Shown here one piece after another: positions 13,867 through 62,140 of a stretch of 64,000 nt of DNA. The translations under genes and the position numbers were made by a program. The first letter of the stretch is position 1, and each line of letters starts with the position of its first letter. The stretch is from Candidatus Babeliales bacterium. Its GTDB lineage: Bacteria > Babelota > Babeliae > Babelales > Vermiphilaceae. The notes below the pieces were generated by a model. That model worked only from the letters and a program-made list of their open reading frames with translations, was not told where the DNA came from and searched no databases. The stretch lies in the NCBI GenBank assembly GCA_963743635.1, contig CAVUQO010000002.1:288001-352000 (forward strand), given 5' to 3'.

Positions 13867-14226
13867 ATGCATAAAATTTTATTATTACTCATAGCAACCA
13901 GCACATACGCATCATTGATGGGTATGGCACAACACAAACAAATCACTCCGGCATTACCTGCCAACAATGGGGCGGCGAGAATGGAAGATATTGAATTGAC
14001 TCGTAACACGGCCACTCAATCTACTACTTCGGATAATGCAAGAGGTTTTTGCGATAATTCCTGTGACCTCATGTGTTGCGGTGTCTGCGCAGCTTGCATG
14101 CTTTGCCCTATTTTTAGTGCCGCAGTCGTATGGGATACCGCACACGTCATATCTGACTGCAAAGAAAAAAAGTGCTATCCGGAAACAAAAGAAGCCGCTA
14201 AATTATGCTACTGCTTCTTGCATTGA
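13867..14226 (+). CDS. Secreted Cys-rich hypothetical protein
   Basis: Signal peptide ending LMG|M; CDNSCDLMCCGVCAACMLC; ends CYCFLH. Confidence 0.75.
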   Translation: MHKILLLLIATSTYASLMGMAQHKQITPALPANNGAARMEDIELTRNTATQSTTSDNARGFCDNSCDLMCCGVCAACMLCPIFSAAVVWDTAHVISDCKEKKCYPETKEAAKLCYCFLH

Positions 14227-14252
14227 GAGCGCCTGCGCTTTATCATAGATGT

Positions 14253-14288
14253 AAAAAAGCCGTTCTGCAGTAATACAGAACGGCTTTG
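14253..14288. terminator. Bidirectional terminator
   Basis: AAAGCCGTTCTG..CAGAACGGCTTT between convergent genes. Confidence 0.75.
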
Positions 14289-14330
14289 TATATTGAGCTG
14301 TTTTTTCGTGGAGATTATGCTTGAGATGAC

Positions 14331-15218
14331 TTATTTCTGTTCAGCTTCATCAGCCCAACGTTCGAGATACTTTGCGCGGGTGATTAGTGGTGGATGTGGA
14401 TTCCAATGATCATGTTTGAATTTCATTAAAGAGCCAAGTGTCGATTTCGCTTGAGGAATACCGATTTCATTGGCAAGAACTTCTCCATCTTCTTGAAAAT
14501 CCTGTATTTGGGTATTGTCCATCTTGCGGAAGAAGGTTGCGACGGCACGAGCCAGAACCGGTTTATCCCTCAATGCTGCATCAGCATCTCTTTCTAAACA
14601 TTTGAGCATGCCAAGTTTGATGGGTATGGCGAGTGTATACAGCGCAGCTGCCAGCGGAATACGCAAGAGCGATCGTGTTATTGATGGGGGGATGATAGAT
14701 GCTTTTGCAGGAGATAATGCTTCTTTTACGCAATGCAGCCCGAACGGTAATGAGGCAGCAATTGCAGGAAAATAAGTGAGGTGATTTCTATCGATATGCC
14801 GTTTTTCGTGAAAAAGTGCACCAAGGAAAGCATCATCACTGAGACCGTCATATTTACTGGCAACCTCAATGGCGAGAGGGTTTATAATGATGGTGTTACG
14901 TGGTGCAGCCATCGCAAAGGGGAACTCTGGATGCTTCTTAATGGTCACTTCATCTAAATCATTGATTCCGTGCTGATGTGCTAATGCTAAAATATTTTCT
15001 CGATAGTTCGAGCAGATTGGCAGAGTTTCTTTTTCAATGATATCAATGATTTCCTCTCTTGCGACGATACTGTTGTAAGCAGGAAGTGCGACAATGGTAC
15101 CCCAATAGCCGGCAGCTCCAATGTAGGAGGCCAGTTTTTTGAATGGAGTTGCCTGAATCGATCCCAGGGATCCGATACTGAGCGCAAGCGCTATGATTTT
15201 ACCTATTCGTTTGTTCAT
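14331..15218 (-). CDS. Secreted M48-like zinc metalloprotease
   Basis: Signal peptide; HEKRH (HExxH), ERDAD, HPPLITR. Confidence 0.8.
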   Translation of the reverse strand: MNKRIGKIIALALSIGSLGSIQATPFKKLASYIGAAGYWGTIVALPAYNSIVAREEIIDIIEKETLPICSNYRENILALAHQHGINDLDEVTIKKHPEFPFAMAAPRNTIIINPLAIEVASKYDGLSDDAFLGALFHEKRHIDRNHLTYFPAIAASLPFGLHCVKEALSPAKASIIPPSITRSLLRIPLAAALYTLAIPIKLGMLKCLERDADAALRDKPVLARAVATFFRKMDNTQIQDFQEDGEVLANEIGIPQAKSTLGSLMKFKHDHWNPHPPLITRAKYLERWADEAEQK

Positions 15219-15263
15219 AATGATCTTTCATTTTTAGCTATTGTTAATAATCTACTACTTAAA

Positions 15264-15292
15264 ATATTATCAAATAGAAAACAGCTTGTAAA
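15264..15292 (-). promoter_or_regulatory. Sigma70-type promoter TTTACA-N17-TAATAT (extended TG)
   Basis: Near-identical arrangement at 21662-21690. Confidence 0.55.
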
Positions 15293-15440
15293 ATGGTGTG
15301 TAGGTTTGGCCTAGCCGCCACATTGATTTTATATACAGAGTAGAACAGGTTCGAATATCGCTCCACCTCATCCCTGAAGAATCGTTTGAGATCATTGCAT
15401 TGCATATGCTTGGATTTAATCCGTTAGAATCCTAATTCCT

Positions 15441-15483
15441 CTACACCACCGGTGCAGAATCATCCACAAGTCGAATCTCAATG
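15441..15483. repeat. 43-bp boundary repeat, copy 1
   Basis: CGGTGCAGAATCATCCACAAGTCGAATCTCAATG; other copies at 16901, 18202, 20171, 23073. Confidence 0.9.
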
Positions 15484-15653
15484 TGACCGATCGATGGCTA
15501 CCGTTCCCAGATATTTCATAGCAAAATACTTTATCTTTTAGTGGCATTGTATTACCTGTATACATGCTTTTTGCACTCAAAACCCTTTTTATATTTGGGA
15601 TATTAAGATATGCTAATGGGCGTTATGTTTTTTTGCAGTGAAGGTACCACATT

Positions 15654-16898
15654 ATGAATAAAAGAACTCAATTATTAAAGGTTATGATGTTCAATCTCCT
15701 TGTATGGACTCAAATGCAGGGGATGGACGCAGGCTCTTCTTTTACTGAACCTGAACAATATATAAAAAATTTTAATGAACGATATTTTCCTCGTAGGACT
15801 GAAGAGGAAAAAGCGCTAGAAGCGCTCGCAGATGGAATAGACAATCCATATCGTTTTGGACCTATTGCCATTGATCGAATAACTGCACAAGATCTTGCTG
15901 ATATAGAAGGTTTAAAAGAAGGTGAATCTCTCTTTCATATGGAATCCCGTATTAGAACGTATGTAGAAAAGCGAACGCTCATGGCAAAAGCGGGGCGACA
16001 ACGATGGTATGATAAGTTCATGGATTGGGATTGCAACGAACCAGACCGTGATGAGCATCTTATAAATTGTATTTTTGGAGCGGCTATTCGTAGAGAGGAT
16101 GTTCCTCTTGCAAAAGATTTACTTAAGCATGGCACAAATCCCAATAAAGACATACAGCTGCGCTGTGGTTATCGAGGGCAGCCTATTTTTGAAGTTATGA
16201 CAGTACCAATGCTTGATTTATTGGTTTCTCATGGAGTCGATCTTGATAAGCCTAATAGATATTATGGACCTGGATATTATCCACCACCTGGATATGAAGT
16301 ATCTCTCGTGCATCATGTAGTTGCATATAGGTCACCAGAAATTTTGGAGCGATTGCTTCAATGTCCAGGAGTTAACGTCAATGCCCGAAGGAACCCAGAA
16401 GCTAACTTCACTGGTCCAACGAGAAACGATCTTCCAGCTTCATACAGGCTTCCACCTTCATACAGGAGTGATATTAAGGACACGCCATTGCATGTATGGG
16501 CTAAGCTGTCCCCTTTTAAGTCGAAGTTTCTGGGTATACAAAAGCAGTTAATGAGTTTAATACGCGCCGGTGCCGATGTGACCTTAAAAAATAGCGAAAA
16601 TTACACAGCGCTTGATATTCTTCGCTCAAAGCTTGCAGATCCTTATGAATACGAGATGCAAATAGTAGTCCAACTCGTCGCCCAACTCGCTGCTTTAATG
16701 CCTCCACAGCCTCAAGCAGATATTGCAAGAAAGGCAGTAGTCGCCACAGAGGAATCAGCCTGCGTTATTTGCTTGGAAAATTTTCAACAATCTGATGATC
16801 GCACTACATTACCATGCGCACATGTATTTCATACGGCGTGTGTAAATCCCTGGATTGCATCAAACAGCACATGCCCTACTTGTAGAACTGCGATATAG
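15654..16898 (+). CDS. Secreted ankyrin-repeat protein with C-terminal RING-H2 (E3 ligase-like), copy 1
   Basis: Signal peptide; LLKHGTNPN, TPLHVWA, LIRAGADVTLKN..TALD; CVIC-x15-CAHVFHTAC-x10-CPTC. Confidence 0.92.
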   Translation: MNKRTQLLKVMMFNLLVWTQMQGMDAGSSFTEPEQYIKNFNERYFPRRTEEEKALEALADGIDNPYRFGPIAIDRITAQDLADIEGLKEGESLFHMESRIRTYVEKRTLMAKAGRQRWYDKFMDWDCNEPDRDEHLINCIFGAAIRREDVPLAKDLLKHGTNPNKDIQLRCGYRGQPIFEVMTVPMLDLLVSHGVDLDKPNRYYGPGYYPPPGYEVSLVHHVVAYRSPEILERLLQCPGVNVNARRNPEANFTGPTRNDLPASYRLPPSYRSDIKDTPLHVWAKLSPFKSKFLGIQKQLMSLIRAGADVTLKNSENYTALDILRSKLADPYEYEMQIVVQLVAQLAALMPPQPQADIARKAVVATEESACVICLENFQQSDDRTTLPCAHVFHTACVNPWIASNSTCPTCRTAI

Positions 16899-16900
16899 AT

Positions 16901-16943
16901 CTATACCGTCGGCGCGGAATCATCCACAAGTCTAATCTCAATG
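16901..16943. repeat. 43-bp boundary repeat, copy 2
   Basis: CTATACCGTCGGCGCGGAATCATCCACAAGTCTAATCTCAATG. Confidence 0.9.
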
Positions 16944-17107
16944 TGGTTGATCGATGGATATTGTTCTAATCTTCCATAGAAAAATACTTTATCTTTCAGC
17001 GATATAGTACACCTGTATACATGCTTTTTGCACTCAAAACCTTTTTATATTTGGGATATTAAGATATACTCATGGGCGCTATATTTTTGCAGTGAAGGTA
17101 CCACATT

Positions 17108-18199
17108 ATGAATAAAAGAACTCAGTTATTAAAGGTTATGATGTTCAATCTCCTTGTATGGACTCAAATGCAGGGGATGGACACTGATTCTTCTTTTACT
17201 GAAGAGGAAAAAGCGCTCCAAGCGCTCGAAGATGGAACAGGCAATCCATATCGTTTTGGACCTATTGCCATTGATCGAATAACCGCACAAGATCTTGCTG
17301 ATATAGAAGATTTAAAAGAACGTTATTCTCGCTATCTTATGACATTCGATATTAGAACGTATGTAGAAAAGCGAACGCTCATGGCAAAAGCGGGGCGACA
17401 ACGATGGTATGATAAGTTCATGGATTGGGATTGCAACGAACCAGACCGTTATAAGCCTCTTATAGATAAGATTTTTGAAGCGGCTCTTAGTAGAGAGGAT
17501 CTTCCTCTTGCAAAAGATTTATTTAAGCATGGCGCGTATCCCAATGAACGCATAGCGCGGGGGCCTTTTTTGGGAGTTAGAACAGTACCGATGCTTGATT
17601 TATTGATTTCTCATGGAGTCGATATTGATAAGACTGGATGTAATCTACCTATCGTGCATAATGCAGTTGCATATGACTCACCAAAATTTTTGGAGCGATT
17701 GCTTCAATGCCCAGGAGTTAACGTCAATGCCCGAAGTAACCCTGGTCGAATGAAAGACGTTTTTGAATGGAGGCAAGATTTTGAGGACACGCCATTGCAT
17801 GTATGGGCTAAGCTGTGCCCTTGGGAGTCGCGGTTTCCGGGTATACAAAAGAAGTTAATGATTTTAATACGCGCCGGTGCCGATGTGACCTTAAAAAATA
17901 GCAAGAATCACACAGCGCTTGATATTCTTCGCTCACATATTGCAGATCGTACATATTGTGTAATGCTGCGCGAACTCGCCGACCAACTCGCTGCTTTAAT
18001 GCCTCCACAGCCTCAAGCAGATATTGCAAGAAAGGCAGTAGTCGCCACAGAGGAATCAGCCTGCGTTATTTGCTTGGAAAATTTTCAACAATCTGATGAT
18101 CGCACTACATTACCATGCGCACATGTATTTCATACGGCGTGTGTAAATCCCTGGATTGCATCAAACCGCACATGCCCTACTTGTAGAACTGCGATATAG
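17108..18199 (+). CDS. Secreted ankyrin-repeat protein with C-terminal RING-H2, copy 2
   Basis: Tandem paralog of 15654; same signal peptide and nearly identical RING. Confidence 0.92.
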   Translation: MNKRTQLLKVMMFNLLVWTQMQGMDTDSSFTEEEKALQALEDGTGNPYRFGPIAIDRITAQDLADIEDLKERYSRYLMTFDIRTYVEKRTLMAKAGRQRWYDKFMDWDCNEPDRYKPLIDKIFEAALSREDLPLAKDLFKHGAYPNERIARGPFLGVRTVPMLDLLISHGVDIDKTGCNLPIVHNAVAYDSPKFLERLLQCPGVNVNARSNPGRMKDVFEWRQDFEDTPLHVWAKLCPWESRFPGIQKKLMILIRAGADVTLKNSKNHTALDILRSHIADRTYCVMLRELADQLAALMPPQPQADIARKAVVATEESACVICLENFQQSDDRTTLPCAHVFHTACVNPWIASNRTCPTCRTAI

Positions 18200-18201
18200 A
18201 T

Positions 18202-18244
18202 CTACATCGTCGGCGCGGAATCATCCACAAGTCTAATCTCAATG
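18202..18244. repeat. 43-bp boundary repeat, copy 3
   Basis: CTACATCGTCGGCGCGGAATCATCCACAAGTCTAATCTCAATG. Confidence 0.9.
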
Positions 18245-18405
18245 TGGTTGATCGATGGATATTGTTCTAATCTTCCATAGCAAAATACTTTATCTTTTAG
18301 TGGCATTAATATCTGTACACATGTCTTTTTTGCATTCAAAGCATTTTGTATTTGGGGATTATGGTATGCTAATAGACGTATTTTTTGAAACGAAAGAGAT
18401 TATAT

Positions 18406-19260
18406 ATGAATAAAAAAATGCAGTGGATAGCGGTGATGTGCATTGGGTTTTTGACGGGGTGCGTAAGCGCTATGAATGATCGTGGCATGCACTGGGCATG
18501 TTTTAACGATGATCATGATCAAGCTCAGGAATTACTAAACGAAAGTAAAAATAGTGTCCATAATTTTACCTTGAACAATGTAGAAATCAGATCTATACCC
18601 GTTCTCTTTTTTGCCAAATCAATTAAGATTGCGGATTTATTAATGCGATATGGTGCGGATCCATATCAGGTAGCTACTTATTATCCCCATGGTGGTGAAA
18701 CTATTATTCATAATTCAATGAGCGCAGATTATTCGATTCCACTTTTGAAACATTATATTGATACTGTACGAATTAATATCAATACAACCACAGCAAATAA
18801 AGATACCCCCTTGCATTATTGGGCACGTTCATCACTTTTTACGTCATCACATTATTTAGGTGTGCAGCCGTATTCAGGGTATTTATCTATCGCACAAGAA
18901 AAATTAAAGATACTCATCGCAGCGGGGGCAAATACAATGCTCAAAAATGCTACGGGGGATACAGCTTTGGATGTTCTCCGACGAAAAAAACTTTCATATA
19001 TTGACAGGCTTCCTGTTACAAAGCAAGAGCGTGAATTGCGAAATGAGGCTTTTGACATACTTGCTCTGCTGCTTAATGCGGCAACAAGAAAACAAATTGC
19101 AAGCATGCCAGAACAGCCTTTTTGTGTTATTTGTCAGGGCGAGCTTGAAGAATCTGATGATCGCACTAGATTACCTTGTACACATGTATTTCATATGACG
19201 TGTATAAATAGCTGGATTACATTAAACGGAATTTGTCCTACTTGTAGAAGAGAAGTATGA
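18406..19260 (+). CDS. Secreted ankyrin-repeat protein with C-terminal RING-H2, copy 3 (divergent)
   Basis: Signal ..CVSA|MN; LMRYGADP, DTPLHYWA, GDTALD; CVIC..LPCTHVFHMTC..WI..CPTCR. Confidence 0.9.
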   Translation: MNKKMQWIAVMCIGFLTGCVSAMNDRGMHWACFNDDHDQAQELLNESKNSVHNFTLNNVEIRSIPVLFFAKSIKIADLLMRYGADPYQVATYYPHGGETIIHNSMSADYSIPLLKHYIDTVRININTTTANKDTPLHYWARSSLFTSSHYLGVQPYSGYLSIAQEKLKILIAAGANTMLKNATGDTALDVLRRKKLSYIDRLPVTKQERELRNEAFDILALLLNAATRKQIASMPEQPFCVICQGELEESDDRTRLPCTHVFHMTCINSWITLNGICPTCRREV

Positions 19261-20162
19261 AAATGAATTACATGAAAAACGCTTATTTTAATCTTATCGC
19301 GCTTGTGGCGCTTTGCATGAGTGAGTCGCTGTATGCAATGGATCAGTTGAGAGCTTTTGAAAATTATTTTCAAAATGGTGATCTGTGGGTCGATGAAAAT
19401 GAAGATGTAATGTCTGATCATATCGTCAAAATACAGAATCATCTTGATGTGCAGCGGCATCTTGGAATGCGGACATATCCCCCGATAAAGACACCGCCCC
19501 CTTTAAATGATGCAACGCAATTAAAATCAGCATTGATGCCACAAAATGATATTGATCGACTTTATGGAGAATACGAGCAGCATGTAAATAAATTTGTTGG
19601 CGCTGTTGTATGTCAGCAAGAGGTTTTAAAGCGTTTGAGGCAAGAAGCATCAAAGTCAGAAAAGCAGACTGGCTTCTTTATTGAATTGCATCGAATATTC
19701 GAAGGTGTTGAGGCATTGATACTGGCTGGTTCAAAATGGCTTGCCGTAACCCGAGAATCGGGCGTAGAGCATTATCTCATTTTAGAGAAATGTCGGCCTT
19801 CTATGGAACAGCAAAAGTACATCAAGTATCGCGTTGATACTCCCGCAATACGAGCAGAATTTTGGAAGTATGCACTGCAACAAGCGCTCTTAAATAATTG
19901 GCAGGCGCATTACAACGATGAGCATTATTGTTTTTGGAAGCATGCAAGCCCACTATCAATGCTCATCATACGGCACCAACTCTATAAAGGGTTTGAAGGT
20001 TTAGACTATAAAAAGACCACTGAATATACTGGTCCTCCGCTTTGTCGCCTAAAATTTAAGGACGGAAAGTTTTGTAATTGGCCGTATGAGAAATTAGAAA
20101 AGTTGCTGGCATTAGCGGATGAAGAGGCGAATGAGCTTAATACAGAACTGCTCTGGAAGTAA
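19257..20162 (+). CDS. Secreted hypothetical protein
   Basis: 301-aa ORF overlapping the RING gene stop (ATGA); signal ..SLYA|MD. Confidence 0.8.
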   Translation: MKMNYMKNAYFNLIALVALCMSESLYAMDQLRAFENYFQNGDLWVDENEDVMSDHIVKIQNHLDVQRHLGMRTYPPIKTPPPLNDATQLKSALMPQNDIDRLYGEYEQHVNKFVGAVVCQQEVLKRLRQEASKSEKQTGFFIELHRIFEGVEALILAGSKWLAVTRESGVEHYLILEKCRPSMEQQKYIKYRVDTPAIRAEFWKYALQQALLNNWQAHYNDEHYCFWKHASPLSMLIIRHQLYKGFEGLDYKKTTEYTGPPLCRLKFKDGKFCNWPYEKLEKLLALADEEANELNTELLWK

Positions 20163-20170
20163 AGGGGGAT

Positions 20171-20428
20171 CTATGCCGTCGGCGCAGTGTCATCCACAAG
20201 CCGAATCTCAATGCGTTCTATTCCTTTTCCCGGGCGATCTCTTTTGAGCGTCACAAACCCAACTTCACTGGTTTTCGCTATGATCATTTGAACACCATAT
20301 ATATTGTCACGTATGTATCGATTATCATCCGCTTCTCCATCTTTAAGATATTTTTCAAGCGTAGGTTTCTCCATGGCGAGGAGTGGAGATGTCATCATGG
20401 ATAGAATGAAAACGAGTTGTTTTTTCAT
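20171..20428 (-). CDS. Small secreted protein whose C-terminus is encoded by the 43-bp repeat (copy 4)
   Basis: Signal ..PLLA|ME; N-terminal half paralogous to the 20443 gene (YIRDNIYG vs HIRDNICG); ends IEIRLVDDTAPTA. Confidence 0.7.
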   Translation of the reverse strand: MKKQLVFILSMMTSPLLAMEKPTLEKYLKDGEADDNRYIRDNIYGVQMIIAKTSEVGFVTLKRDRPGKGIERIEIRLVDDTAPTA

Positions 20429-20442
20429 GGAATTCCTTCGAA

Positions 20443-31714: not shown

Positions 31715-31771
31715 GGGGCAGTCGGGCTGGGGGATTTTTCTTTTGTTAACCGGCAATCAATTTCATCAAAA

Positions 31772-32002
31772 AAATAAGTAAAATCCCCTCATCCGTTCGT
31801 CCCGGGTGTTTCTATTCCTGCGCGAAGCGGAGGATAGAAATGTGCGAGGGATTTTAAATCAGATAATTCATATTTTAGTGTGGAGTACATGCAGATTTTA
31901 TGTGGAATATTATTTATCAACAATTCCTCGCACAATTCTCTCCTTCACTGCGTTCAGGATAGAATCACTCGGAACGAACGGGGGAGGGGATTTTACTTAT
32001 TT
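31772..32002. mobile_element. REPIN/MITE-like element with ~80-bp imperfect inverted arms
   Basis: AAATAAGTAAAATCCCCTC..CCGTTCGT..TGTGCGAGG mirrored at the right end. Confidence 0.8.
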
Positions 32003-32061
32003 CTATGATGTAATTGCCATTTAATTTCTTAACCCTACTCACACCAAAAAAGAATCTATAA

Positions 32062-32112
32062 ACCCGTTCGTCGTGAGATGTTTCGATCCATTAGGAGCGA
32101 AATGTATCGAAT
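32062..32112. repeat. REP-like palindromic unit
   Basis: CCCGTTCGTCGTGAG..AAATGTATCGAA. Confidence 0.6.
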
Positions 32113-32139
32113 GATTGAAAAGAACGGGATATATAAAAA

Positions 32140-32565
32140 CTATTGATTATCGTCTTGTTGCTCTTGCCATCGACGATAGCGGACTTCTTGTTTTTCTAAG
32201 TCCTTCAGACATTTTTCACTTTGTGCAATTCTTTTTTCTATATCATGTACATGATTTGCATCCTCTTCAGAAAGAATGGCAGCTGCATGTTCTTGACGGT
32301 ACTCTTCCCAACGGGCCCATTGCAGGAGATCTTGTGCTTGCATTTGAAAAGCTTCCTTGCACAATTTGTGCTCTGCGACTGGACGCCCTTCGGTTATGAG
32401 AGGGGTCATCATTAAACCGCACACCGCAGTAAGATAACAGCATGCTTTTACTGCATTGCCGTAGGCATTCGTAGATGATTTAGTTTTCGCAGTTTCCATT
32501 TGCATAGCGTGCATGTGTGAAGTGCAGAGCGCAAAGGCCATGAGGCCGATTAATAGTTTTTTCAT
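32140..32565 (-). CDS. Secreted hypothetical protein
   Basis: Signal ..HMHA|MQ; internal hydrophobic helix and coiled coil. Confidence 0.78.
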   Translation of the reverse strand: MKKLLIGLMAFALCTSHMHAMQMETAKTKSSTNAYGNAVKACCYLTAVCGLMMTPLITEGRPVAEHKLCKEAFQMQAQDLLQWARWEEYRQEHAAAILSEEDANHVHDIEKRIAQSEKCLKDLEKQEVRYRRWQEQQDDNQ

Positions 32566-33146: not shown

Positions 33147-33623
33147 CTATTGGTTTGATGAAAAATAATTAATCCAGCTTTGTACGTAGGCTATGGTGCG
33201 CGTAGTAAGAGTGGGCGTTTCTTGAACGGGAACGCTTGGTGCTTTTGTGACATCATTGTTCGCTTGTTCCCACTGTCTCAAAGTTCCAGGATTCCAGCTG
33301 ATCAATTGGCGTGCAGTGTTGAAACTATCCTGAAATTTTAATTGCTCTCGTTGATAGATATTTCTTGCGAGAGCGTGACATCTTTCTTGTTCCTCTTCAC
33401 TCATATGCTGACTGGATTCGTTTTCGTTAACATCCAAGGGTTCAGGAGGAACCGCCATCTGGCGTGCTGTATTAAAACTCATCGATGCGGGAAGATGCCC
33501 AATTGCAACTCGTTCACCTTGCGCATTTGTGCGGAACATTACTACTGAACTGAGACCAGATCTATCCATTGCGTGCAGGTGATGCGCTGCTATGAGCAAT
33601 ATGGTACATAATAGTTTTTTCAT
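33147..33623 (-). CDS. Secreted hypothetical protein
   Basis: Signal ..HLHA|MD; SFNTARQ occurs twice. Confidence 0.78.
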   Translation of the reverse strand: MKKLLCTILLIAAHHLHAMDRSGLSSVVMFRTNAQGERVAIGHLPASMSFNTARQMAVPPEPLDVNENESSQHMSEEEQERCHALARNIYQREQLKFQDSFNTARQLISWNPGTLRQWEQANNDVTKAPSVPVQETPTLTTRTIAYVQSWINYFSSNQ

Positions 33624-33710: not shown

Positions 33711-34625
33711 TTACTCAATTGAACCATAGTGAGCCACGCGTTTATCAGCATTCGCTTCATGCCAAAATGCTGCGTAACGATCTTGAGCACCGGGTTTGCT
33801 TGGTGAAAAATGCCAGTATTCATTGTGATAATTAGTGAGTCCTGCGAGTGCAGCAGCCATTTGCAAATAGAGGCGGTTACGTTTTTGAGTATCGGAAATA
33901 TCTTCTGAATAGGTTGGCACTGATGGATTTGCTCCCCAAATCACGCCAAATTTCCCAAGATCAAGATACTCTTTTTTCTTTTCATTCCATAAACGAAAAT
34001 CGATTGCTGCTCCGGTAGAATGCACGGGCACATTATTCTTAACCGGTGAAACCCATTTTGATGTTTCAGCGTCTGCTTGTTCGTCTGTCATTCCCATATT
34101 GGCCGCCATAATTTCAGCCTTTTTGTTATTGAAGAGCATCTCTTGCGTTTTTAAATCGCGCAATCCTTCAAATACTTTAATGGAAACTTCCGCAGGTTCA
34201 TAGCCAAAATGGGGCGATAATGTATCGAGATTTGGAATCATTGCCGCTACGGATGCATACACCGTTTTACGTACTTTCGATGCACTTGGTAATCCAGAGT
34301 TGCATGCATCGCTTTCAAAGGGGGTTGCAGGATCCGGCATCATCGTAATGCGTGGATTGTGGATTTCTCGTACGTCTACGAGTGATTCATGATTTTCTAC
34401 TATGGGTATGCTTCTTACGTCAGGGTGGGCGATGGCCGGAGCTTCACCGCGTGCAAATGCAGCTTGTTGGCGTTTAATAATTTCCAAGGCAGGGTATTGC
34501 TCAAAAAGAGGTTGATATTTTTGGAATAGTTCCGGCCAAGACATTGCTAGTGCATCAGAGTGCGTTGCCATAACGAGTGCTAAAAGAGCTATTTTTTTCA
34601 TGGTTAATTCAGTTGTTCTTATCAT
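33711..34625 (-). CDS. D-Ala-D-Ala dipeptidase-like M15 peptidase (VanX/DdpX family), signal peptide
   Basis: VFEGLR, HSTGAAID, EYWHF. Confidence 0.88.
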   Translation of the reverse strand: MIRTTELTMKKIALLALVMATHSDALAMSWPELFQKYQPLFEQYPALEIIKRQQAAFARGEAPAIAHPDVRSIPIVENHESLVDVREIHNPRITMMPDPATPFESDACNSGLPSASKVRKTVYASVAAMIPNLDTLSPHFGYEPAEVSIKVFEGLRDLKTQEMLFNNKKAEIMAANMGMTDEQADAETSKWVSPVKNNVPVHSTGAAIDFRLWNEKKKEYLDLGKFGVIWGANPSVPTYSEDISDTQKRNRLYLQMAAALAGLTNYHNEYWHFSPSKPGAQDRYAAFWHEANADKRVAHYGSIE

Positions 34626-46690: not shown

Positions 46691-47047
46691 TTATTTCCTT
46701 TCTTCGATCGTATGAGGATCTTGTGGGTTATCGATGAAGACCCAATTGTTTTCTGTTGAAAGAGGCTTAATGTGCGTGCGTATGTAGTGTATGAGTTGGA
46801 ACTTTTTTAGCAAGTTTATGCATGCCTGAGTGCGTTTTGCACTTTCCTGTTTGGTTGAATTTTGCGTTGTGAGCTTTTCCATTGCATGAAGATCGTAGGA
46901 TGCGCAAAAAACTAATGCGATGACGAGCGCGGTATAGCAAGACTTGCTAAGTGATGCACATTTATCCCTTATGTCCCGCGTTATGCCCCTGCGGGCTACT
47001 AGGGACGAACGGGAGTGGATATTTGTTAAAACATTAGGCTTTTTCAT
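46691..47047 (-). CDS. Secreted-type hypothetical protein whose 5' end lies in the MITE
   Basis: ..LVIALVFCASYDLHA|ME; the first ~28 codons derive from the repeat element. Confidence 0.55.
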   Translation of the reverse strand: MKKPNVLTNIHSRSSLVARRGITRDIRDKCASLSKSCYTALVIALVFCASYDLHAMEKLTTQNSTKQESAKRTQACINLLKKFQLIHYIRTHIKPLSTENNWVFIDNPQDPHTIEERK

Positions 47048-48028: not shown

Positions 48029-48268
48029 TCATTTTTTTTCACAACCATTTTTTTGATTAGGCGACTTAAAGAGTGGATTGAGCGTTGTGTTGGTGGCTGG
48101 TTCACCGTGCGTTTCTCTTTTTGCGTTTTTATCATGAAGCGCCAAGACTTCTTCCAGAGTAATTTCGTCTATTTGGCTGTTGGATTGCTTATTGTTGGGT
48201 TGCATTGCGTGCAGCGTGAAAGAAGAAACGAGAAGAGTTAGGACAAGGTTATTCCATATAATATTCAT
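48029..48268 (-). CDS. Small secreted protein
   Basis: Signal ..TLHA|MQ. Confidence 0.65.
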   Translation of the reverse strand: MNIIWNNLVLTLLVSSFTLHAMQPNNKQSNSQIDEITLEEVLALHDKNAKRETHGEPATNTTLNPLFKSPNQKNGCEKK

Positions 48269-48350
48269 GAAAATCCTTTGGGCTCGCAAGGAGCATTTGG
48301 TATTGAAACGTCGCATTGTGTATATCGTGGTTTGTTAAAAAAGGCAACCA

Positions 48351-48763: not shown

Positions 48764-49069
48764 TTATTCTTTTGCGGGTTTAGGAGTTTTGGGCGTTCTG
48801 GGAGTAATGGGAGGGCGTGGGGAATTTGGATTAGAAGAACTACCATTGGAAGGGATAGAGATGGCAGCTTTTATTTTCAGGATAGTTTTGGTGTTGATAT
48901 TTTCTTCTTCGCAGAAGCTTTTATTGAGGGTTTCTTTTAATTCCTCGATGCGGCGTGGCGAAAAGGGAACGACTTCAGGGTCTGACGAAGGGGAATCTTG
49001 CATACCCATCAGCGAGGCAGTGCTTTGCGCAATAACCATGCATACTAGATAATAAATATGACGTTTCAT
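48764..49069 (-). CDS. Small secreted S/T-P-rich protein
   Basis: Signal ..SLMG|MQ; SPRPPITPRTPKTPK. Confidence 0.72.
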   Translation of the reverse strand: MKRHIYYLVCMVIAQSTASLMGMQDSPSSDPEVVPFSPRRIEELKETLNKSFCEEENINTKTILKIKAAISIPSNGSSSNPNSPRPPITPRTPKTPKPAKE

Positions 49070-55536: not shown

Positions 55537-55546
55537 AACGGGGAGT

Positions 55547-55957: not shown

Positions 55958-55989
55958 AGTGTTTCCTTTTTATTAAACTTAACTTTTAA

Positions 55990-56355: not shown

Positions 56356-56438
56356 TTTATCTCCTTTTAAAATGGGTTAATCATTACTTTAACTATATCG
56401 AAAATAAGTGCCTAAAATCAATAGTTTTTAATTATTCA

Positions 56439-56996
56439 TTAATCTTGTTCTTGGTATTGCAGGTTCATTGGCTGTCGCGGGGCATTCCGTCTTTGGGTAG
56501 AATAAGTAGGGCGTTTTACGGGGCCTCTTGGGCGGACATTGCCGGGGCGATTAGGGCGTCGAGCCTGCATATCCTGCGTAGCATCTTCCCAGCCACTGTC
56601 GTAGGCGTCACGTTCTGATCTATGTTTGAAATGTTTTTGGTAGTGTCTGCCATACTGCGCATCATGCATACCGCGATCGTACGCTCTGCGTTCTGCTCTT
56701 TGTCTTTCTTGACGTCTGCGTCGATCATGACGTTCGCTACGACTGCCTTCAGTAGCGGCAAGACCAAAAAGAAGGCCAGCACCAGCACCAATAGCAGCGC
56801 CTCTGCCACCACCAGCTGCTCCGCCGACAAGGGCGCCCGTAGCGGTTGTACCTAAGACGGTTCCTGCCTCTCTACCTCGTCGATCTCTATCGTAATAATA
56901 ATCATCGTCATAATAGGCGCGTGCGGTTTGTGCCACAACCATGCTGCTTACAGCGAGTATTGCGAGCAATTGCTGCTTCTTAGTTATCCAATTCAT
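56439..56996 (-). CDS. Secreted glycine-zipper, Arg-rich protein
   Basis: TGALVGGAAGGGRGAAIGAGAGLLFG; AYDRGMHD, AYDSGWED. Confidence 0.8.
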   Translation of the reverse strand: MNWITKKQQLLAILAVSSMVVAQTARAYYDDDYYYDRDRRGREAGTVLGTTATGALVGGAAGGGRGAAIGAGAGLLFGLAATEGSRSERHDRRRRQERQRAERRAYDRGMHDAQYGRHYQKHFKHRSERDAYDSGWEDATQDMQARRPNRPGNVRPRGPVKRPTYSTQRRNAPRQPMNLQYQEQD

Positions 56997-57032
56997 TATT
57001 ATCTCCTTTTTAAAATGGGTTTATCTATCTCT

Positions 57033-57419
57033 TTATCTTCCAGGAATATTGTTATTGCCATACATCGGTCCATGGTCATACAGATCTGGAACGCTGGTTC
57101 TCTTTTCGTAATATAGTTTATTGACGCGCGATCGGAATGCTGAACGAGCAATTTTGCCTTCTGCTAAGTCTTTGGCATATTCCTGTCTACCGAGTCTGTA
57201 GGCTTCTTTTTTTCGTGAAAGTCGGTAAAGTTCGTTTTCGCGGTATGGCTTATTATGCTCTTCGTCGTATCTACCTTGCTGGTATGCCTGTGAATCTCTG
57301 AGATCTTGCACGTGTCCATTGGCATTTTTGCCGTTAGCAGCACATAATAATGGCGTTACGCCCGCAATATAGAGCACCGCGATTGTGATAATTATTTTTG
57401 ATTTTTTTACCCTGTTCAT
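57033..57419 (-). CDS. Secreted basic protein
   Basis: Signal peptide; AYQQGRYDE, AYRLGRQE. Confidence 0.75.
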   Translation of the reverse strand: MNRVKKSKIIITIAVLYIAGVTPLLCAANGKNANGHVQDLRDSQAYQQGRYDEEHNKPYRENELYRLSRKKEAYRLGRQEYAKDLAEGKIARSAFRSRVNKLYYEKRTSVPDLYDHGPMYGNNNIPGR

Positions 57420-57579
57420 AACCGTCCCTTTTTAAATTGGTTATTATTTACTTTAACTATATTAAAATAAGGACTTAAAAATCAATGATATGGTATTAAA
57501 AATAAAAGAATTACCTGCGTTTGCAGGAATGGAGGGGTAAAAAGGAGAGGCCTGCTACCCGTAGGGACAGGAGGAGGTT

Positions 57580-57625
57580 AATAAAAACCCCCTGGGACAT
57601 CATGTGTACACAGGGGGTTTTTATT
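57580..57625. terminator. Terminator hairpin
   Basis: AATAAAAACCCCCTG..CAGGGGGTTTTTATT. Confidence 0.8.
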
Positions 57626-57668
57626 GTTTTTTCAGTCAAGTTTCGACGTACTGATTTTTATCCGCATC

Positions 57669-58118
57669 CTAGTTTTGATTTAGAGGTTGCGTACGCGTCG
57701 CTGGTTGTTGTGCCAAGTTGTGTGCGATTTCCATTAAGTATTTATGTAGCCATTGTGACATTTCTGTGCCTTGTTCACCATCTTCCTCTAATAATAGAGG
57801 TTTTATTGCTAGATAGCGTGTATGGAGCTTATTTAATCGAGAGTGTGCGGCATAGTATCCAAGCGCATCTATTGCTTGCCAGGTTTCAAGCACGGTATTA
57901 GGAAAGTTACTGAAATCATCAGCGCACTTTGCCTTGAACTTTATTGAATTTTCCGTCCATTCGTTCTGCGGTATAACGCAGGTTTTGCGGCAATCTTCGA
58001 AGGTCATGCTCATTACTTGTCGGCAGCTAGCGAGGTCCTCATCCCGACCAGCAGATGCATTCTGGGTCGTCAGAAGGGCAGACAAGTATATTACTGTTGA
58101 AAGTATCTGTTTTTTCAT
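57669..58118 (-). CDS. Secreted helical protein
   Basis: Signal peptide; RYLAIK..MSQWL motif shared with 60573. Confidence 0.75.
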   Translation of the reverse strand: MKKQILSTVIYLSALLTTQNASAGRDEDLASCRQVMSMTFEDCRKTCVIPQNEWTENSIKFKAKCADDFSNFPNTVLETWQAIDALGYYAAHSRLNKLHTRYLAIKPLLLEEDGEQGTEMSQWLHKYLMEIAHNLAQQPATRTQPLNQN

Positions 58119-58195
58119 TATTTTTCCTTTGTTATATAGCTGCAATATGTGTTTATTCTTTAATTATATATTACAATAAGACTTATTGCAAAGGC

Positions 58196-58618
58196 CTATT
58201 GAGGTATTATTATTGCGGTTAATGCTGTTTTGGTCTCATTAAGCTTAACATCTTGTGGCTGTTGCCTGGGATTCTTTAAAAAGTCGAGCAAATAATTTTG
58301 ATCATTTGTCTCTGCTGAGGCATTCGACGCATGCTGACGGCGTTCCCATATACTCATCTTCTCAGCTGAGTTCGATACCAATGCCTTTGCTTGCAGTGAT
58401 GCACGTGTATGACCGCTCGGTTTAAAGTTTAAGGTTGCAGGATGTGGCAGTGGTATAGTTCTTTGAGTTCTTTCCCGGTACCGCTCTTGCTTTAAGGCCA
58501 GGCAAACAAGGTGCCAGATAGTAATTTCATCCTGCGATAGGCAGCCCTGGCCCGCATGGGCGGGGAAAATGGTGGCGCATGCGAAGATTATTGTTATGCC
58601 ATACATTGATCGATGCAC
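58196..58618 (-). CDS. Secreted hypothetical protein
   Basis: Signal ..PAHA|GQGCLS. Confidence 0.65.
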   Translation of the reverse strand: MHRSMYGITIIFACATIFPAHAGQGCLSQDEITIWHLVCLALKQERYRERTQRTIPLPHPATLNFKPSGHTRASLQAKALVSNSAEKMSIWERRQHASNASAETNDQNYLLDFLKNPRQQPQDVKLNETKTALTAIIIPQ

Positions 58619-58730
58619 TATGTTCGTACTCTTATTATGAGATTTATGATTGCTTAATATACTGCGCCAATTGATTAATTTTTACTGCCCCCAGAAGGAG
58701 CACAAGAACGTCAGCGGCGATGCGTTGAAT

Positions 58731-60311
58731 TTATTCATCATCCCCATCATCATCATAGTCGTCGGGATTTGAACTATTGTCATTATCCTCGTCATCATCA
58801 TCGTCGTCATCATCATCGTCTTCAGCATTGAGCATACTTTGCATCTTCTGGATGCCCGCTAATGCCCGCGTGGTTTTATTGGCAAGAGTTATTCGTTGCA
58901 GATCCATTATTTTTTGAATATCGGTTGATTCTTGATTCTCGGGCGGCAGTGTGGGAATAATGTCGACGCCCAGATCTTGCGCAAAGCGATTTCTCAGCCG
59001 GTCACGCAGTGCGATATGTTCGGGATCTTCTACAGTAATGCCTTTGAGATAAAGAAGGCCCATATTAAGAACGTTTTGATAATGCTGTTGCCATTGCTTA
59101 ATGCGCTTAAGGTTTTGCGCATACGGTTTTACGTGATTGGCCTCAAGATTGCTTACATTTTCACTGATTTCTTGTGCGATGGAGATCATGCAGGGGGCGT
59201 CTTGCTTGATTTCAGGTGAGTGTAATATCGAACGCTTTTCTTGCTGATATGCTCGTAAATAAGAGGGAATATCTACCAAAGAATATTGTTCGCTTTCGGT
59301 ATTTGCGAAAACGAGGACGTTGAGCATGCTGAGCTTATCTGCCTGATCGATCATAGTGCGGGCGATAGCTTGAGACTCCGTTTTTAAGAAGTGATCACGG
59401 AATCCCTCATGCGCCATGATATTCGAGCGTTTGTGTATGGCATTAGTGTCATGGGCGTGTGAATGCAGGAGCGGCAAAAAGCCGGGATTTTTGGGGGTTG
59501 ATTGTGCTGCGGGCTGTGCAGCTTCAGGATCATCGTCGTCGTCATCATTTTCATCAATATGCACTCGCTTTAGATCATTGGTTACGATATCGTCCGAATC
59601 AGACGCATCTAAAAGTGTTCTTTTGTGAGATCCAGCTGCCGGAGCAGATGCTGGTGTTGTAGGCGTTTGGTTATTTGGAGGTATGCAGGACAAGGCAGAA
59701 AACTGGAGCATCTTCGAGGCGAGGTTGATTTCCTGATGTTCTAGGCGTAATTTGGCGATGGTTCTTGTTTGAGTGGTTATAAAAAATCGCTCATCAGAGT
59801 CATATTTGTTTAATATATTGCGTAAGTCAGTGATGAGGCAATGATACGGATTAGAAGCTTCAATATACGGGATTGCGCTGTGCGCGAACCTGTTGTAATA
59901 GAGTTGTAATCGCAAGATTCTTTCGGCCATTTCAGAATAGGTATAATTTATGCGTGGACCGATGTGGAGCCTGCGGTGAGAGGTGCGTGCGATATTTGCT
60001 TCAGTTTCTTTAATGTTGTTGATTATTTTTTGTATATCTCCGGCTAAAAGGTCCAATTGAGTTACAGGTTTTTCCTCTTTGATTATTTGGCGGCACAATG
60101 TTTGTTGATCCCATGGTTCTCCAGAGAATAGATCCTTGTCTTCAAAAATCTCTATAGCCTCTTGTGCAACATTTTTTCGAATATTTTGCAGTTCCGCGGT
60201 TAATCGATCGGTAACTTCTTCGCTTGGCGCGGCGATGAGTGTAGATGCTGCAATAAGAATGTAGAGCGTGAATGCTGCGGCGATACGCATTAGTGTTTGT
60301 ATTTTGTTCAT
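58731..60311 (-). CDS. Secreted protein with poly-Asp tracts
   Basis: Signal peptide; two helical halves, each followed by an acidic tract; poly-D C-terminus. Confidence 0.85.
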   Translation of the reverse strand: MNKIQTLMRIAAAFTLYILIAASTLIAAPSEEVTDRLTAELQNIRKNVAQEAIEIFEDKDLFSGEPWDQQTLCRQIIKEEKPVTQLDLLAGDIQKIINNIKETEANIARTSHRRLHIGPRINYTYSEMAERILRLQLYYNRFAHSAIPYIEASNPYHCLITDLRNILNKYDSDERFFITTQTRTIAKLRLEHQEINLASKMLQFSALSCIPPNNQTPTTPASAPAAGSHKRTLLDASDSDDIVTNDLKRVHIDENDDDDDDPEAAQPAAQSTPKNPGFLPLLHSHAHDTNAIHKRSNIMAHEGFRDHFLKTESQAIARTMIDQADKLSMLNVLVFANTESEQYSLVDIPSYLRAYQQEKRSILHSPEIKQDAPCMISIAQEISENVSNLEANHVKPYAQNLKRIKQWQQHYQNVLNMGLLYLKGITVEDPEHIALRDRLRNRFAQDLGVDIIPTLPPENQESTDIQKIMDLQRITLANKTTRALAGIQKMQSMLNAEDDDDDDDDDDEDNDNSSNPDDYDDDGDDE

Positions 60312-60488
60312 GATTTGTTGTCCCTGCAATAAGTATCTTGTATTTAAATAAACATATGCAGCATATCAAAAACGCAATGTATAGGGCAAATGATTGCTAT
60401 TGGAAAATCTGTTTTATGCGCAATTTGCCTCGTATTGAATTGATTAAAATTGCATCAAGTGGGCAATAAAAGCATAAAGTGAGTCTAT

Positions 60489-60525
60489 AAAAAAAATCCC
60501 CTTGTAATCTACAAGGGGATTTTTT
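60489..60525. terminator. Terminator hairpin
   Basis: AAAAAATCCCCTTGTA..TACAAGGGGATTTTTT. Confidence 0.85.
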
Positions 60526-60572
60526 GAAATTGCTTTGATTCTGTAAACATCTTTTGAATGCGGAACTTCTAT

Positions 60573-61403
60573 TTACTTTGAATTTTTTGTAATTTCGTTT
60601 TCTACCAAGTTCTGAGCAGCTTGTTCTAGTTTTTTCGCAAGCCATTGAGACATCTGTCGTCCATCCGTAGTTTCTTCCAATTGGCTTTTTATCGCTAGAT
60701 AACGCTTGTTGAGATGAGAGCATTCTTGAATCAAGTCGCTATCAAGAAAAAATTGTGATTCGCCGAGCAATAAGTCCACCCTTTTAGGAAAATTAGTTGG
60801 CCTTGCATAAGCGGAGAGGTTTGCAGAATTTTTGCTGAATCTACTCACTTTGGTTTGCCAATCTAACATGAGCGCTTTCTCATATATGATATCGCCACAA
60901 GAAGGCTGTTTGTCTAGTTTAACATTCATTACAGCTTGGCATTCGCGAAAATCTCGTAATGCCATCCTGTTAGCGTATGCGCTAGTCATATCAGGATCGT
61001 TATAGGTTATATTGTAGTTGCAAAAATGTTTGGACGCGCCTGGGTTAAATTCATTTGAGTTAGCAATCAATGCCTTAGCGGAAGAGGTTAGGTGATTTGC
61101 AATTGTTTTTGACCTCTTGTCCCCCCCTGGAGTTGCTTCTAAGCGTTCTTTTATTGCGCCATAGTCATCAGACAACGTTTTGTATGTAGTAAGCGTGCGA
61201 CTATAGAAGTCAGCATCGCCACACCATGGGAGAGGTGCTTCAAGAGCGAGGCAGCGTGCCTCCTGCTCGAGATCAGTTACTAAATTGCTGAATTCAGCAT
61301 TATCCATAGTAGGTTTGTTATTCATAGCAGATAGACTATCTACTGCAAAAATGCTGCATAAGACAACAATTCTAAAAAAATCGTTAGCATGTCTGTTTTT
61401 CAT
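60573..61403 (-). CDS. Secreted helical protein
   Basis: Signal ..SLSA|MN; RYLAIK..MSQWL. Confidence 0.8.
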   Translation of the reverse strand: MKNRHANDFFRIVVLCSIFAVDSLSAMNNKPTMDNAEFSNLVTDLEQEARCLALEAPLPWCGDADFYSRTLTTYKTLSDDYGAIKERLEATPGGDKRSKTIANHLTSSAKALIANSNEFNPGASKHFCNYNITYNDPDMTSAYANRMALRDFRECQAVMNVKLDKQPSCGDIIYEKALMLDWQTKVSRFSKNSANLSAYARPTNFPKRVDLLLGESQFFLDSDLIQECSHLNKRYLAIKSQLEETTDGRQMSQWLAKKLEQAAQNLVENEITKNSK

Positions 61404-61669
61404 CAGTTTTCCCTTAAAAAAGTTATTAATACTATTTACAGTTTATCACAAAAAGCATCAATATCAAATGCCTTTTTGATATTGAGAGTAATTTTTTAGG
61501 TATAAGTGCAGAAGAATTAATCCTGTTATTGAGAAAGAATAGCAGCGATTATGGTGACAATCAGAATGCGTCGGGGGGCTATGGGTGGCATTGCCTGGTA
61601 TCCGTATCGGATGAGGAGCATGTTATGGTGATAGTGGTGCTATGATTGTCTTATGTAATGAAAAGTACT

Positions 61670-62140
61670 TTATATATTTGCAAAAAAGCAGCATCGGCGT
61701 TGATAGGCTTGTTCTACTCGTCGTCGTTCGAAAAGATTAGTAGTTGGAGCATGATTCTTTCTTCGTTCTTCAATGATAGCAGCTGTGAGGGGCACAATGC
61801 CTGGGCATACTGGGCCAAATAATAGGTGTTGGTTTTCTCCGGGCAGCTGTGAGTTTGGAGAGTGTTTGTTTTGTTTACTGCGTTCTTGTTCCATGAATAG
61901 ATAGTAGTAGACTATAGCCTCGTGATAATAAATTCTCTCATACGCTTGCTTGTTACATTGGCAAGGGCTCACGGGAGCAGGAAGAGTCTCGTCCGGTTTT
62001 ATTGTCGAGAACCACTCTTTATTCGCCACTCTTAAAAGATCAATATCATTAGTGGAGAGCCTTTCCATTGCACATAGCGTATGTGTGATAATCAGAGAGG
62101 AAATTAATAATAATAAAGATCGATTCATATAGGTGTTCAT
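61670..62140 (-). CDS. Secreted hypothetical protein
   Basis: Signal ..TLCA|ME; ends RRCCFFANI. Confidence 0.72.
   Translation of the reverse strand: MNTYMNRSLLLLISSLIITHTLCAMERLSTNDIDLLRVANKEWFSTIKPDETLPAPVSPCQCNKQAYERIYYHEAIVYYYLFMEQERSKQNKHSPNSQLPGENQHLLFGPVCPGIVPLTAAIIEERRKNHAPTTNLFERRRVEQAYQRRCCFFANI

Follow-up and report, generated by a model that had tools for sequence, protein, structure and literature searches.

Many predicted Sec signal peptides of the phylum Dependentiae (Babeliales) follow a genuine phylum-wide convention in which a cleavage site ending in Ala or Gly is directly followed by Met. This Met-first site came to attention in 14 open reading frames (ORFs) of a 64,000-nucleotide (nt) stretch of DNA from a protist-parasitic Candidatus Babeliales bacterium (GenBank assembly GCA_963743635.1, contig CAVUQO010000002.1, positions 288,001 to 352,000 of the forward strand), termed the window throughout, and it extends beyond these 14 genes. 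Our preferred reading, held tentatively, is that selection has extended the signal peptidase I site in this lineage by the Met, the purpose of which is most likely to provide host-exposed proteins with a eukaryote-style N-terminus that retains its Met.

Frequency of methionine after predicted cleavage sites

The genome containing the window comprises 1.45 Mb in 3 contigs (C2 and C3 below being contigs 2 and 3) with 42% G+C and is 85% complete. Genes were called by a dicodon coding score and signal peptides (SP) by a heuristic, both written for this analysis and the latter a stand-in for SignalP, such that all cut sites are heuristic predictions and all gene starts are longest-ORF calls. The cut-site chooser judged candidate sites by their -3 and -1 residues and by a lack of charge beyond the hydrophobic core, ignoring +1 (hereafter 'blind'), while a permissive rule accepted any allowed [AGSCT]|M site close to the hydrophobic core. 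Sites were termed confident where the mature start was polar, with A or G at -1 demanded of non-Met sites.

An SP-like N-terminus was found in 726 (48%) of the 1519 genes called, with Met the commonest blind +1 residue at 130/726 (17.9%) against 2.7% Met overall (binomial p 6.6e-65), such that chance is excluded at the genome scale. Gln was chosen at +1 in 23/726 and neither Val nor Leu was in excess at +1 of these 726 N-termini. The permissive rule gave a Met site in 208/726, a 10.6-fold rise over background where most other residues rose about 3-fold, and Met followed 111/405 confident sites. Once paralogues had been collapsed by single-linkage clustering on leader or mature similarity, blind Met was present in 42/321 of the remaining singletons. 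Among the non-Met sites there is a renewed rise in Met 3-6 residues past the chosen position, with many leaders reading ...A|SMHAMED, indicating that the blind figure is too low.

The survey was extended to samples of about 400 kb from each of six further Dependentiae genomes, representing about one third of each genome and, as kin, not independent of one another, together with two controls. The blind +1 Met counts were as follows.

G009, Dependentiae, same family as the window genome, ~400 kb: 32/170
G043, Dependentiae, same family as the window genome, ~400 kb: 15/132
G047, Dependentiae, same family as the window genome, ~400 kb: 9/194
G028, Dependentiae, other family, ~400 kb: 19/171
G058, Dependentiae, other family, ~400 kb: 11/174
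G060 (Candidatus Dependentiae bacterium Noda2021), ~400 kb: 19/173
Control, E. coli K-12, 300 kb: 0/50
Control, Chlamydiae chromosome G059, 400 kb: 1/72

Pooled, the six Dependentiae samples had Met at 105/1014 sites and the excess of +1 Met was seen in all seven Dependentiae genomes sampled, the window genome included. The preliminary description of the window had called the motif lineage-specific, and this is borne out by its presence in 7/7 Dependentiae genomes against 0/50 sites in E. coli and 1/72 in Chlamydiae. In E. coli 50/257 genes were SP-like, periplasmic proteins among them, with the sites of SurA, DegP and BtuF recovered. A further comparison used 20-kb loci around homologues of an M15 peptidase gene of the window, a weak control that is small and biased by the M15 gene itself, with Met at 7/89 sites in Dependentiae, 3/48 in Chlamydiae, 2/36 in Alpha/Rickettsiales, 1/40 in Gamma/Legionellales, 0/6 in Amoebophilaceae, 0/13 in Actinobacteria, 1/12 in the Candidate Phyla Radiation, 0/3 in Bdellovibrionota and 8/84 in unlabelled loci.

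The relatives are related to the window genome at the phylum level, falling in one order with genomes of 0.8-1.9 Mb. In the G060 sample 47% of genes match the window genome with a median identity of 55%, like other genomes of the same phylum, while in the Chlamydiae sample 16% of genes match with an identity of 39%. Contigs from four DNA runs are almost identical to the window over long pieces and, being so close to it, are silent on constraint at the Met codons.

Several essential genes of the genome are broken, with an rpoC-like frame lying in at least nine ORFs (window 543-4459, plus strand) and a uvrA-like one in five (C2:547255-549198), both read from translations, and the lspA match containing an in-frame TGA (C3:413886-414335). 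These breaks reflect either assembly indel errors or real decay. Since frames are broken in essential genes (rpoC, uvrA), some gene calls in the genome will be wrong and their reliability is lowered.

Site composition, leader modules and the ORFs of the window

Met sites have A (86%), G (11%) or S (4%) at -1, L/A/V/M/I/T/S at -3 and Q/L/H/F/N/Y at -2, a pattern due in part to the chooser's own rules at -1 and -3. The common form is [L/A/V/M/I]-x-[A/G] then Met, usually with D, Q, E, N or S next. The c-region of the Met sites fits signal peptidase I, and the 14 window sites show the -3/-1 pattern directly. The residue at +2 is coupled to Met, with D, E, N or Q at 82/130 (63%) Met sites compared with 120/596 other sites (odds ratio 6.8, Fisher p 8e-21); behind internal Mets the figure is 18.9%. 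D (23%) and Q (20%) head the +2 residues, with T at 3.1%, A and K each at 2.3%, and G and P below that. The preliminary description had recognised here the substrate class of the eukaryotic acetyltransferase NatB, an observation that holds across this genome and in the six other Dependentiae, where D, E, N or Q follows in 63/105.

A number of other motifs were considered as the basis of the site and rejected. A lipobox for signal peptidase II does not fit, with Met rather than Cys at +1 and a bulky or polar residue at -2 in place of the lipobox A/S/T. A Kozak-like or other DNA-level motif was discarded on the preceding Ala codons, which at GCA 39, GCG 30, GCC 13 and GCT 13 are near genome usage. 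The RxLxE/Q/D motif of the Plasmodium export element (PEXEL), which is cut behind its Leu, was rejected for having no counterpart to its Arg at -3 relative to Leu, the site being preceded by [LAVIM]-x-[AG], and the Gln rule of Bacteroidetes (Q-rule) was set aside with Gln at only 23/726 blind +1 positions.

The genome encodes two intact-looking tandem genes for signal peptidase I (LepB), of 332 and 312 amino acids (aa; C3:523052-524998), above the TIGR02227 cut-off, both containing SGSME and KR[VI]IG stretches that we take to be the catalytic Ser and Lys boxes. A SecA homologue has 49% identity to E. coli SecA, LspA is present with its one in-frame TGA, and two GspE-like proteins, two GspF-like proteins, one pseudopilin and two secretins are also encoded. 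The LepB of relatives occurs as a long form (~330 aa), a short form (~300 aa) or both. LepB type was rejected as the cause of the Met sites, with Met at 4.6% in G047 (long form), 11.4% in G043 (short form only) and 17.9% in the window genome (both). According to the available text on one Dependentiae isolate, signal peptides occur on 44% of coding sequences (PMC6561590), which the 48% SP-like share found here fits. The corresponding text on another isolate gives 79/126 ankyrin proteins with a signal peptide and a type II secretion system (T2SS) as its only secretion system (PMC4378268), and that of a seven-genome comparison describes the T2SS as conserved with two gspD copies in all (PMC4776705).

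In leader families, defined by shared upstream DNA and leader, the Met-first site is frequent. The 34 families with common upstream non-coding DNA and leader (107 genes) divide into 15 all-Met, 12 all non-Met and 7 mixed, with Met in 65/107 genes. There are 101 gene pairs in which the leaders are alike and the mature parts have no detectable similarity. The clearest pair lies outside the window on the same contig (C2:551638-551922 and C2:554205-554693, both minus strand) and shares 178 nt at 98.3% identity, beginning about 110 nt before the start, taking in the leader and ending right after ATG, with the sequences unrelated beyond; weaker copies of this module occur at more than 10 further places. 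Leaving aside those that extend far into the body, leader matches between Met-type genes number 36, of which 12 stop 0-9 nt past the first base of the Met codon, 3 earlier and 21 later. In an 11-gene family reading ...WRMGA|MEQ... similarity is gone two to three codons past Met, and similarity often collapses one to three codons beyond the Met-polar dipeptide. The end points of the modules and matches place Met, and often the +2 residue, in the conserved reusable leader and not in the variable body, such that, judged from sequence, the Met-polar dipeptide behaves as the last element of the export leader, retained along with promoter and leader modules that duplicate and recombine among fast-evolving secreted genes. 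Pairing by protein similarity (1303 pairs, position-wise identity) was dropped because low-complexity leaders match by chance.

These promoter-plus-leader modules of ~180 nt form a dispersed family with 75-100% identity at C2:549373-555466 and more than ten further loci, among them C2:420.4-422.0 kb, C3:469.2 kb and C3:492.3 kb, where the bodies can be unrelated. This dispersal suggests that secreted genes probably exchange export leaders by recombination or gene conversion.

The preliminary description had listed 14 window ORFs with A/G|Met, 12 of them continuing with D, E, N or Q, and all 14 are present where it placed them, each starting with a basic stretch and an uncharged hydrophobic core, after which a short polar c-region closes with A or G directly before Met. 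Their +2 residues are, in order, A, D, D, N, D, E, Q, D, S, E, Q, Q, N and E (D/E/N/Q 12/14). At most 13 of the leaders are independent, as the ORFs starting at 15654 and 17108, paralogues in tandem, have one leader in common. The ORFs are listed below (SD, Shine-Dalgarno).

13867..14226, plus strand: 119-aa ORF, 19-aa leader ...SLMG|MAQHKQ, Met codon 13924-13926, no Pfam family
15654..16898, plus strand: 414-aa ankyrin and RING-H2 protein, 23-aa leader ...TQMQG|MDAGSS, Met codon 15723-15725, SD-like motif before the leader start
17108..18199, plus strand: 363-aa ankyrin and RING-H2 protein in tandem with its paralogue 15654, same leader ...TQMQG|MDTDSS, Met codon 17177-17179
18385..19260, plus strand: 291-aa ankyrin and RING-H2 protein, leader ...GCVSA|MNDRGM, Met codon 18472-18474, longest ORF from TTG 18385 (ATG 18406 in the preliminary description)
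19257..20162, plus strand: 301-aa ORF, leader ...SESLYA|MDQLRA, Met codon 19338-19340, no Pfam family
20171..20428, minus strand: 85-aa ORF, 18-aa leader ...TSPLLA|MEKPTL, Met codon 20372-20374, SD-like motif upstream, no Pfam family
32140..32565, minus strand: 141-aa ORF, 20-aa leader ...TSHMHA|MQMETA, Met codon 32503-32505, SD-like motif upstream, no Pfam family
33147..33623, minus strand: 158-aa ORF, 18-aa leader ...AHHLHA|MDRSGL, Met codon 33567-33569, no Pfam family
33711..34625, minus strand: 304-aa peptidase M15 (VanX/VanY-like), leader ...HSDALA|MSWPEL, Met codon 34542-34544
46691..47047, minus strand: 118-aa ORF, low-confidence gene, ...SYDLHA|MEKLTT, Met codon 46880-46882, no Pfam family
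48029..48316, minus strand: small ORF with weak coding score of 5.6, 21-aa leader from ATG 48268, ...SFTLHA|MQPNNK, Met codon 48203-48205, SD-like motif before 48268, no Pfam family
48764..49069, minus strand: 101-aa ORF, 22-aa leader ...TASLMG|MQDSPS, Met codon 49001-49003, SD-like motif upstream, no Pfam family
60573..61403, minus strand: 276-aa ORF, leader ...VDSLSA|MNNKPT, Met codon 61323-61325, SD-like motif upstream, no Pfam family
61670..62140, minus strand: 156-aa ORF with weak coding score of 6.6, 24-aa leader ...THTLCA|MERLST, Met codon 62066-62068, no Pfam family

Three of these ORFs score weakly as coding sequence and are absent from the gene calls, namely 46691-47047 (-0.7), 48029-48316 (5.6) and 61670-62140 (6.6), and in the first the Met lies 55 residues from the sole upstream start, a leader size that is atypical. 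The blind chooser lands on the Met site in 7/14 of the ORFs. Taken alone, the window has 77 called genes with 36 SP-like, among which Met sites number 5 by the blind and 8 by the permissive rule. A Pfam family was found in 4/14 Met-type ORFs and in 8/22 other SP-like ORFs of the window, no clear difference in this small sample. The leader of ORF 13867 shares 53 nt with a gene on contig 3, the match stopping one codon past Met, and that of ORF 33147..33623 is like those of contig-3 genes with no similarity between the mature parts.

At the tandem ankyrin-RING pair (window 15654-18199) one DNA-run contig (X2) joins 16476 to 17784, skipping 1307 nt, which would give a one-copy form of the pair, and 'goes back' joints were found there in the X2 and X3 contigs; the copy number of the pair seems to vary between populations. 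In the intergenic region at about 31770-32115 short contigs of all four runs pile up, with raised depth, many variants, loose ends and opposite-strand joints, and this region is probably a repeated element or a hairpin-rich repeat.

Explanations for the Met-first site

The Met-first site is unevenly distributed among secreted proteins. The preliminary description had suggested comparing +1 Met between orphan or eukaryote-like proteins and periplasmic housekeeping proteins, and a comparison of orphan with conserved SP proteins gave an enrichment in the orphans, with blind Met in 109/485 (22.5%) of orphan SP proteins against 21/241 (8.7%) of those with a cross-genus homologue (p 3e-6, 2.6-fold), where orphan denotes an SP protein without a homologue in any of the six partial Dependentiae samples, a class over-called equally in both groups. 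At confident sites Met is found in 15/115 conserved SP proteins, the overall share in this group being 8.7-13%. All RING-finger E3-like proteins of this genome above the Pfam cut-off have a Met site (7/7), as do 3/12 of the other ankyrin proteins checked, two without a leader call being left unscored. The proposal that the site is an effector hallmark thus stands in part, as regards orphan proteins and the local RING proteins, while the site is not exclusive to such proteins, being present in conserved SP proteins, mixed among ankyrin proteins, rare among RING proteins elsewhere (4-5/25) and not conserved across genera.

The RING-H2 family (PF13639) itself was found in 57/121 Dependentiae genomes searched and in 0/14 control genomes, with an SP-like N-terminus on 25/28 RING-H2 proteins examined from other Dependentiae. 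F-box-like, U-box and Pkinase families had no match in this 85%-complete genome.

The preferred reading, that the site is a selected extension of the signal peptidase I site, begins from Sec export, after which signal peptidase I is predicted to cut at A/G|Met such that the exported protein would begin with a non-initiator Met. The Met cap would then give host-exposed proteins a eukaryote-style N-terminus with Met retained. It is known that small +2 residues let methionine aminopeptidase (MetAP) remove Met, that basic residues near the cut site hinder translocation and that hydrophobic +2 residues make a Met-hydrophobic degron. Ser aside, such small residues are rare at +2, as are basic and hydrophobic ones. 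The +2 spectrum may be read as the remainder once MetAP-permitting small, basic and hydrophobic residues are excluded, and the set left over equals the M-D/E/N/Q class that NatB takes as substrate. What is gained would be stability or acetylation by the host and not a second start codon. The retention of Met in singletons whose leaders have diverged beyond recognition, and its recurrence in unrelated families, argue for selection and not for a neutral scar.

A number of observations weigh against this reading. Ser, which would permit Met removal, makes up 11.5% of +2 residues. In 7/14 window ORFs the blind chooser favours another small-residue site nearby, such that the preliminary claim of cleavage at A/G|M is matched by the chooser in one half of the ORFs and not in the other. 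The Met share ranges from 4.6% to 18.8%, a spread of about 4-fold even among genera of one family, and in cross-genus homologue pairs 6 share Met and 38 are discordant. Relatives of the M15 peptidase at 74-76% identity read ...ALS|QTW where the window has ALA|MSW. RING ORFs with a leader in 28 other Dependentiae genomes have Met in 4 (blind) or 5 (permissive) of 25, indicating that Met is not needed for such proteins to work. General avoidance of N-degrons at +1 was rejected as an explanation, since, Met aside, stabilising and destabilising +1 residues are distributed alike in orphan and conserved proteins (114/125 vs 43/57, p 0.47). NatB, as described in the available text of PMC8553619, works co-translationally on host ribosomes, and host acetylation of an imported protein is speculative. 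Together the local link to RING proteins, the poor cross-genus conservation and the lack of a wider N-degron pattern count against a strict requirement for Met.

The M15 family also has relatives further afield. In a Chlamydiae-labelled group the site reads VFA|MNW, with I or S variants. Relatives of the secreted M15 (VanX/VanY-like) peptidase (window 33711-34625) at 40-56% identity were observed in metagenome-assembled genomes labelled Dependentiae/Babeliales, Chlamydiae, Rickettsiales, Legionellales and Amoebophilaceae, and by sequence the gene looks like one common to protist-associated bacteria. The database relatives P0035, P0055, P0064, P0079, P0117 and P0120 are annotated with a start at or inside the leader, in P0055 exactly at the Met.

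A more specific form of the proposal, in which the M-[D/E/N/Q] end would be a host-directed code, is doubtful. NatB-class termini would be placed on proteins released to the protist cytosol, there to be acetylated or to go unseen as N-degrons, or would license a second export step, and this bacterial imitation of the eukaryotic N-terminal proteoform would be carried by promoter-leader-Met modules shuffled among effector genes.

It is rather unlikely that the new Met-acidic/amide N-terminus is a sorting signal read in the periplasm, marking the protein for passage across the outer membrane by type II secretion or vesicles. Such a signal would account for a dipeptide that moves with the leader and not with the variable body, and for its enrichment in orphan secreted proteins and in the 7/7 RING proteins here, which can act only in the host, and the genome does encode two secretins with T2SS-type ATPase and platform genes. 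To our knowledge there is no linear N-terminal signal for type II secretion, the leader-bearing RING proteins of other Dependentiae are mostly without Met, Met is not conserved between homologues and the D/E/N/Q spectrum is left without a reason. In Plasmodium mature N-termini do confer export specificity, according to the available text of PMC10653839.

An enzymatic preference, whereby the signal peptidase I of Dependentiae would cleave optimally, or with the greatest precision, when P1' is Met and P2' is polar and the residues would have no downstream role, is improbable. The weaker excess in conserved SP proteins (21/241 blind, 15/115 confident) and the presence of Met in every Dependentiae genome sampled would follow from it, and a phylum-specific P1' rule has a precedent in the Bacteroidetes Q-rule (PMC5837995, available text). 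It leaves unexplained the 4-fold spread in frequency among genera of one family, a frequency that is independent of LepB type and an orphan share 2.6 times the conserved share.

We give equally little weight to the Met being a largely neutral junction scar, left where promoter-plus-leader cassettes were fused at or near the ATG of other ORFs or spread by gene conversion. The near-identical modules before unrelated bodies that break right after ATG, the 101 gene pairs with leader-only similarity and the 12/36 matches ending 0-9 nt past the first base of the Met codon all favour such a history, as do the enrichment among genes that are young or orphan and among leader families that have expanded (65/107 genes) and the lack of conservation of Met across genera. 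Against it, 41 Met-type proteins have leaderless homologues and in no case does such a homologue begin within 8 residues of the Met, and the D (23%) and Q (20%) at +2 are unlike the second residues of leaderless proteins (K 14%, N 10%, A 9%, I 9%). The excess persists in 42/321 singletons, Met outlasting every other leader residue. Captured GTG or TTG starts would give Val or Leu, neither of which is raised at +1, and there is no clear SD remnant before Met (4.6% compared with 2.2% at other +1 codons). The suggestion in the preliminary description of a signal cassette set before a captured gene's own start was therefore right in so far as cassettes breaking right after Met exist, and fails on the +2 residues, which differ from native second residues, and on the 0/41 homologues that start at Met.

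That the Met serves as a second start, from an internal ribosome-binding site or a leaderless transcript, for a leaderless cytoplasmic isoform is highly improbable: the residue is always ATG-encoded and some database relatives are annotated from at or near it (P0055), but SD-like motifs mark the leaders as the real starts, standing before 67% of the 726 leader starts, 4.6% of the 130 Met codons and 2.2% of other +1 codons, which speaks against an internal start giving dual isoforms, a -10-like TANNNT box lies upstream of 12.6% of Met codons compared with 14.6% of other +1 codons, which speaks against a leaderless transcript start, and cytoplasmic copies of some 130-200 secreted proteins would have no obvious use.

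Relation to known systems and significance

The nearest described phenomenon is the Bacteroidetes Q-rule, in which Gln occupies P1' of signal peptidase I substrates and is cyclised to pyroglutamate, as given in the available text of PMC5837995 and PMC10653852. Both concern a phylum-specific residue right after the Sec/signal peptidase I cut, a proteome-wide prediction and an unusual mature N-terminus. The Met-first site differs in its residue, in affecting ~18-29% of substrates where the Q-rule affects most, in the coupling to +2, in the enrichment among orphans and in being predicted from sequence alone. With classical Sec/signal peptidase I peptides it shares the basic n-region, hydrophobic core, small -1 and mostly aliphatic or small -3 residue, with LepB and SecA encoded, whereas Met is the commonest +1 residue here and was found at 0/50 sites in E. 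coli and 1/72 in Chlamydiae.

In Plasmodium, cleavage of PEXEL exposes a new N-terminus that reads x-E/Q/D, is acetylated and specifies export (PMC10653839, available text). The likeness lies in a parasite's secreted proteins having a short processing-site motif and an acidic or amide residue at mature position 2, whereas PEXEL belongs to a eukaryote and depends on plasmepsin V and an RxL motif that is absent here, such that the likeness is functional and speculative only. The same four dipeptides that define NatB-class N-termini of eukaryotes make up 63% of the Met-first sites (PMC8553619, available text), whereas NatB acts on nascent chains at host ribosomes and the terminus here is a predicted product of a bacterial peptidase after translocation.

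Conotoxin precursors are secreted gene families with a conserved leader and a hypervariable body. The leader families described here resemble them in a highly conserved signal region and a sharp drop in similarity at the mature start and differ in that upstream non-coding DNA is also common and the bodies can be wholly unrelated. Shared upstream DNA before unrelated bodies argues for recombination of leader modules and not for fast divergence alone.

No description of a Met-first rule was found in the literature searched, which covered main texts and few subscription journals. The signal-peptide lists in Additional file 9 of PMC4378268 and the supplementary tables of PMC6561590 may hold predicted cleavage sites. 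In the available text of PMC6561590 and PMC4378268 the term 'signal peptide' occurs and 'cleavage' does not, and that of PMC4776705 does not contain 'signal'.

For annotation, gene finders can place the start of a Met-first gene at the internal ATG and thereby miss the leader and export signal, as in the M15 relatives. If confirmed, the Met-first site would follow the Bacteroidetes Q-rule as the second phylum-level rule on the residue that succeeds a signal peptidase I cut, in a phylum in which about half of the proteins have export signals and the biology of host manipulation is almost unknown. It would provide an inexpensive way to flag, from sequence, some of the candidate host-directed proteins and would raise the testable question of whether the first residue pair steers the fate of a secreted bacterial protein in the eukaryotic cytosol.

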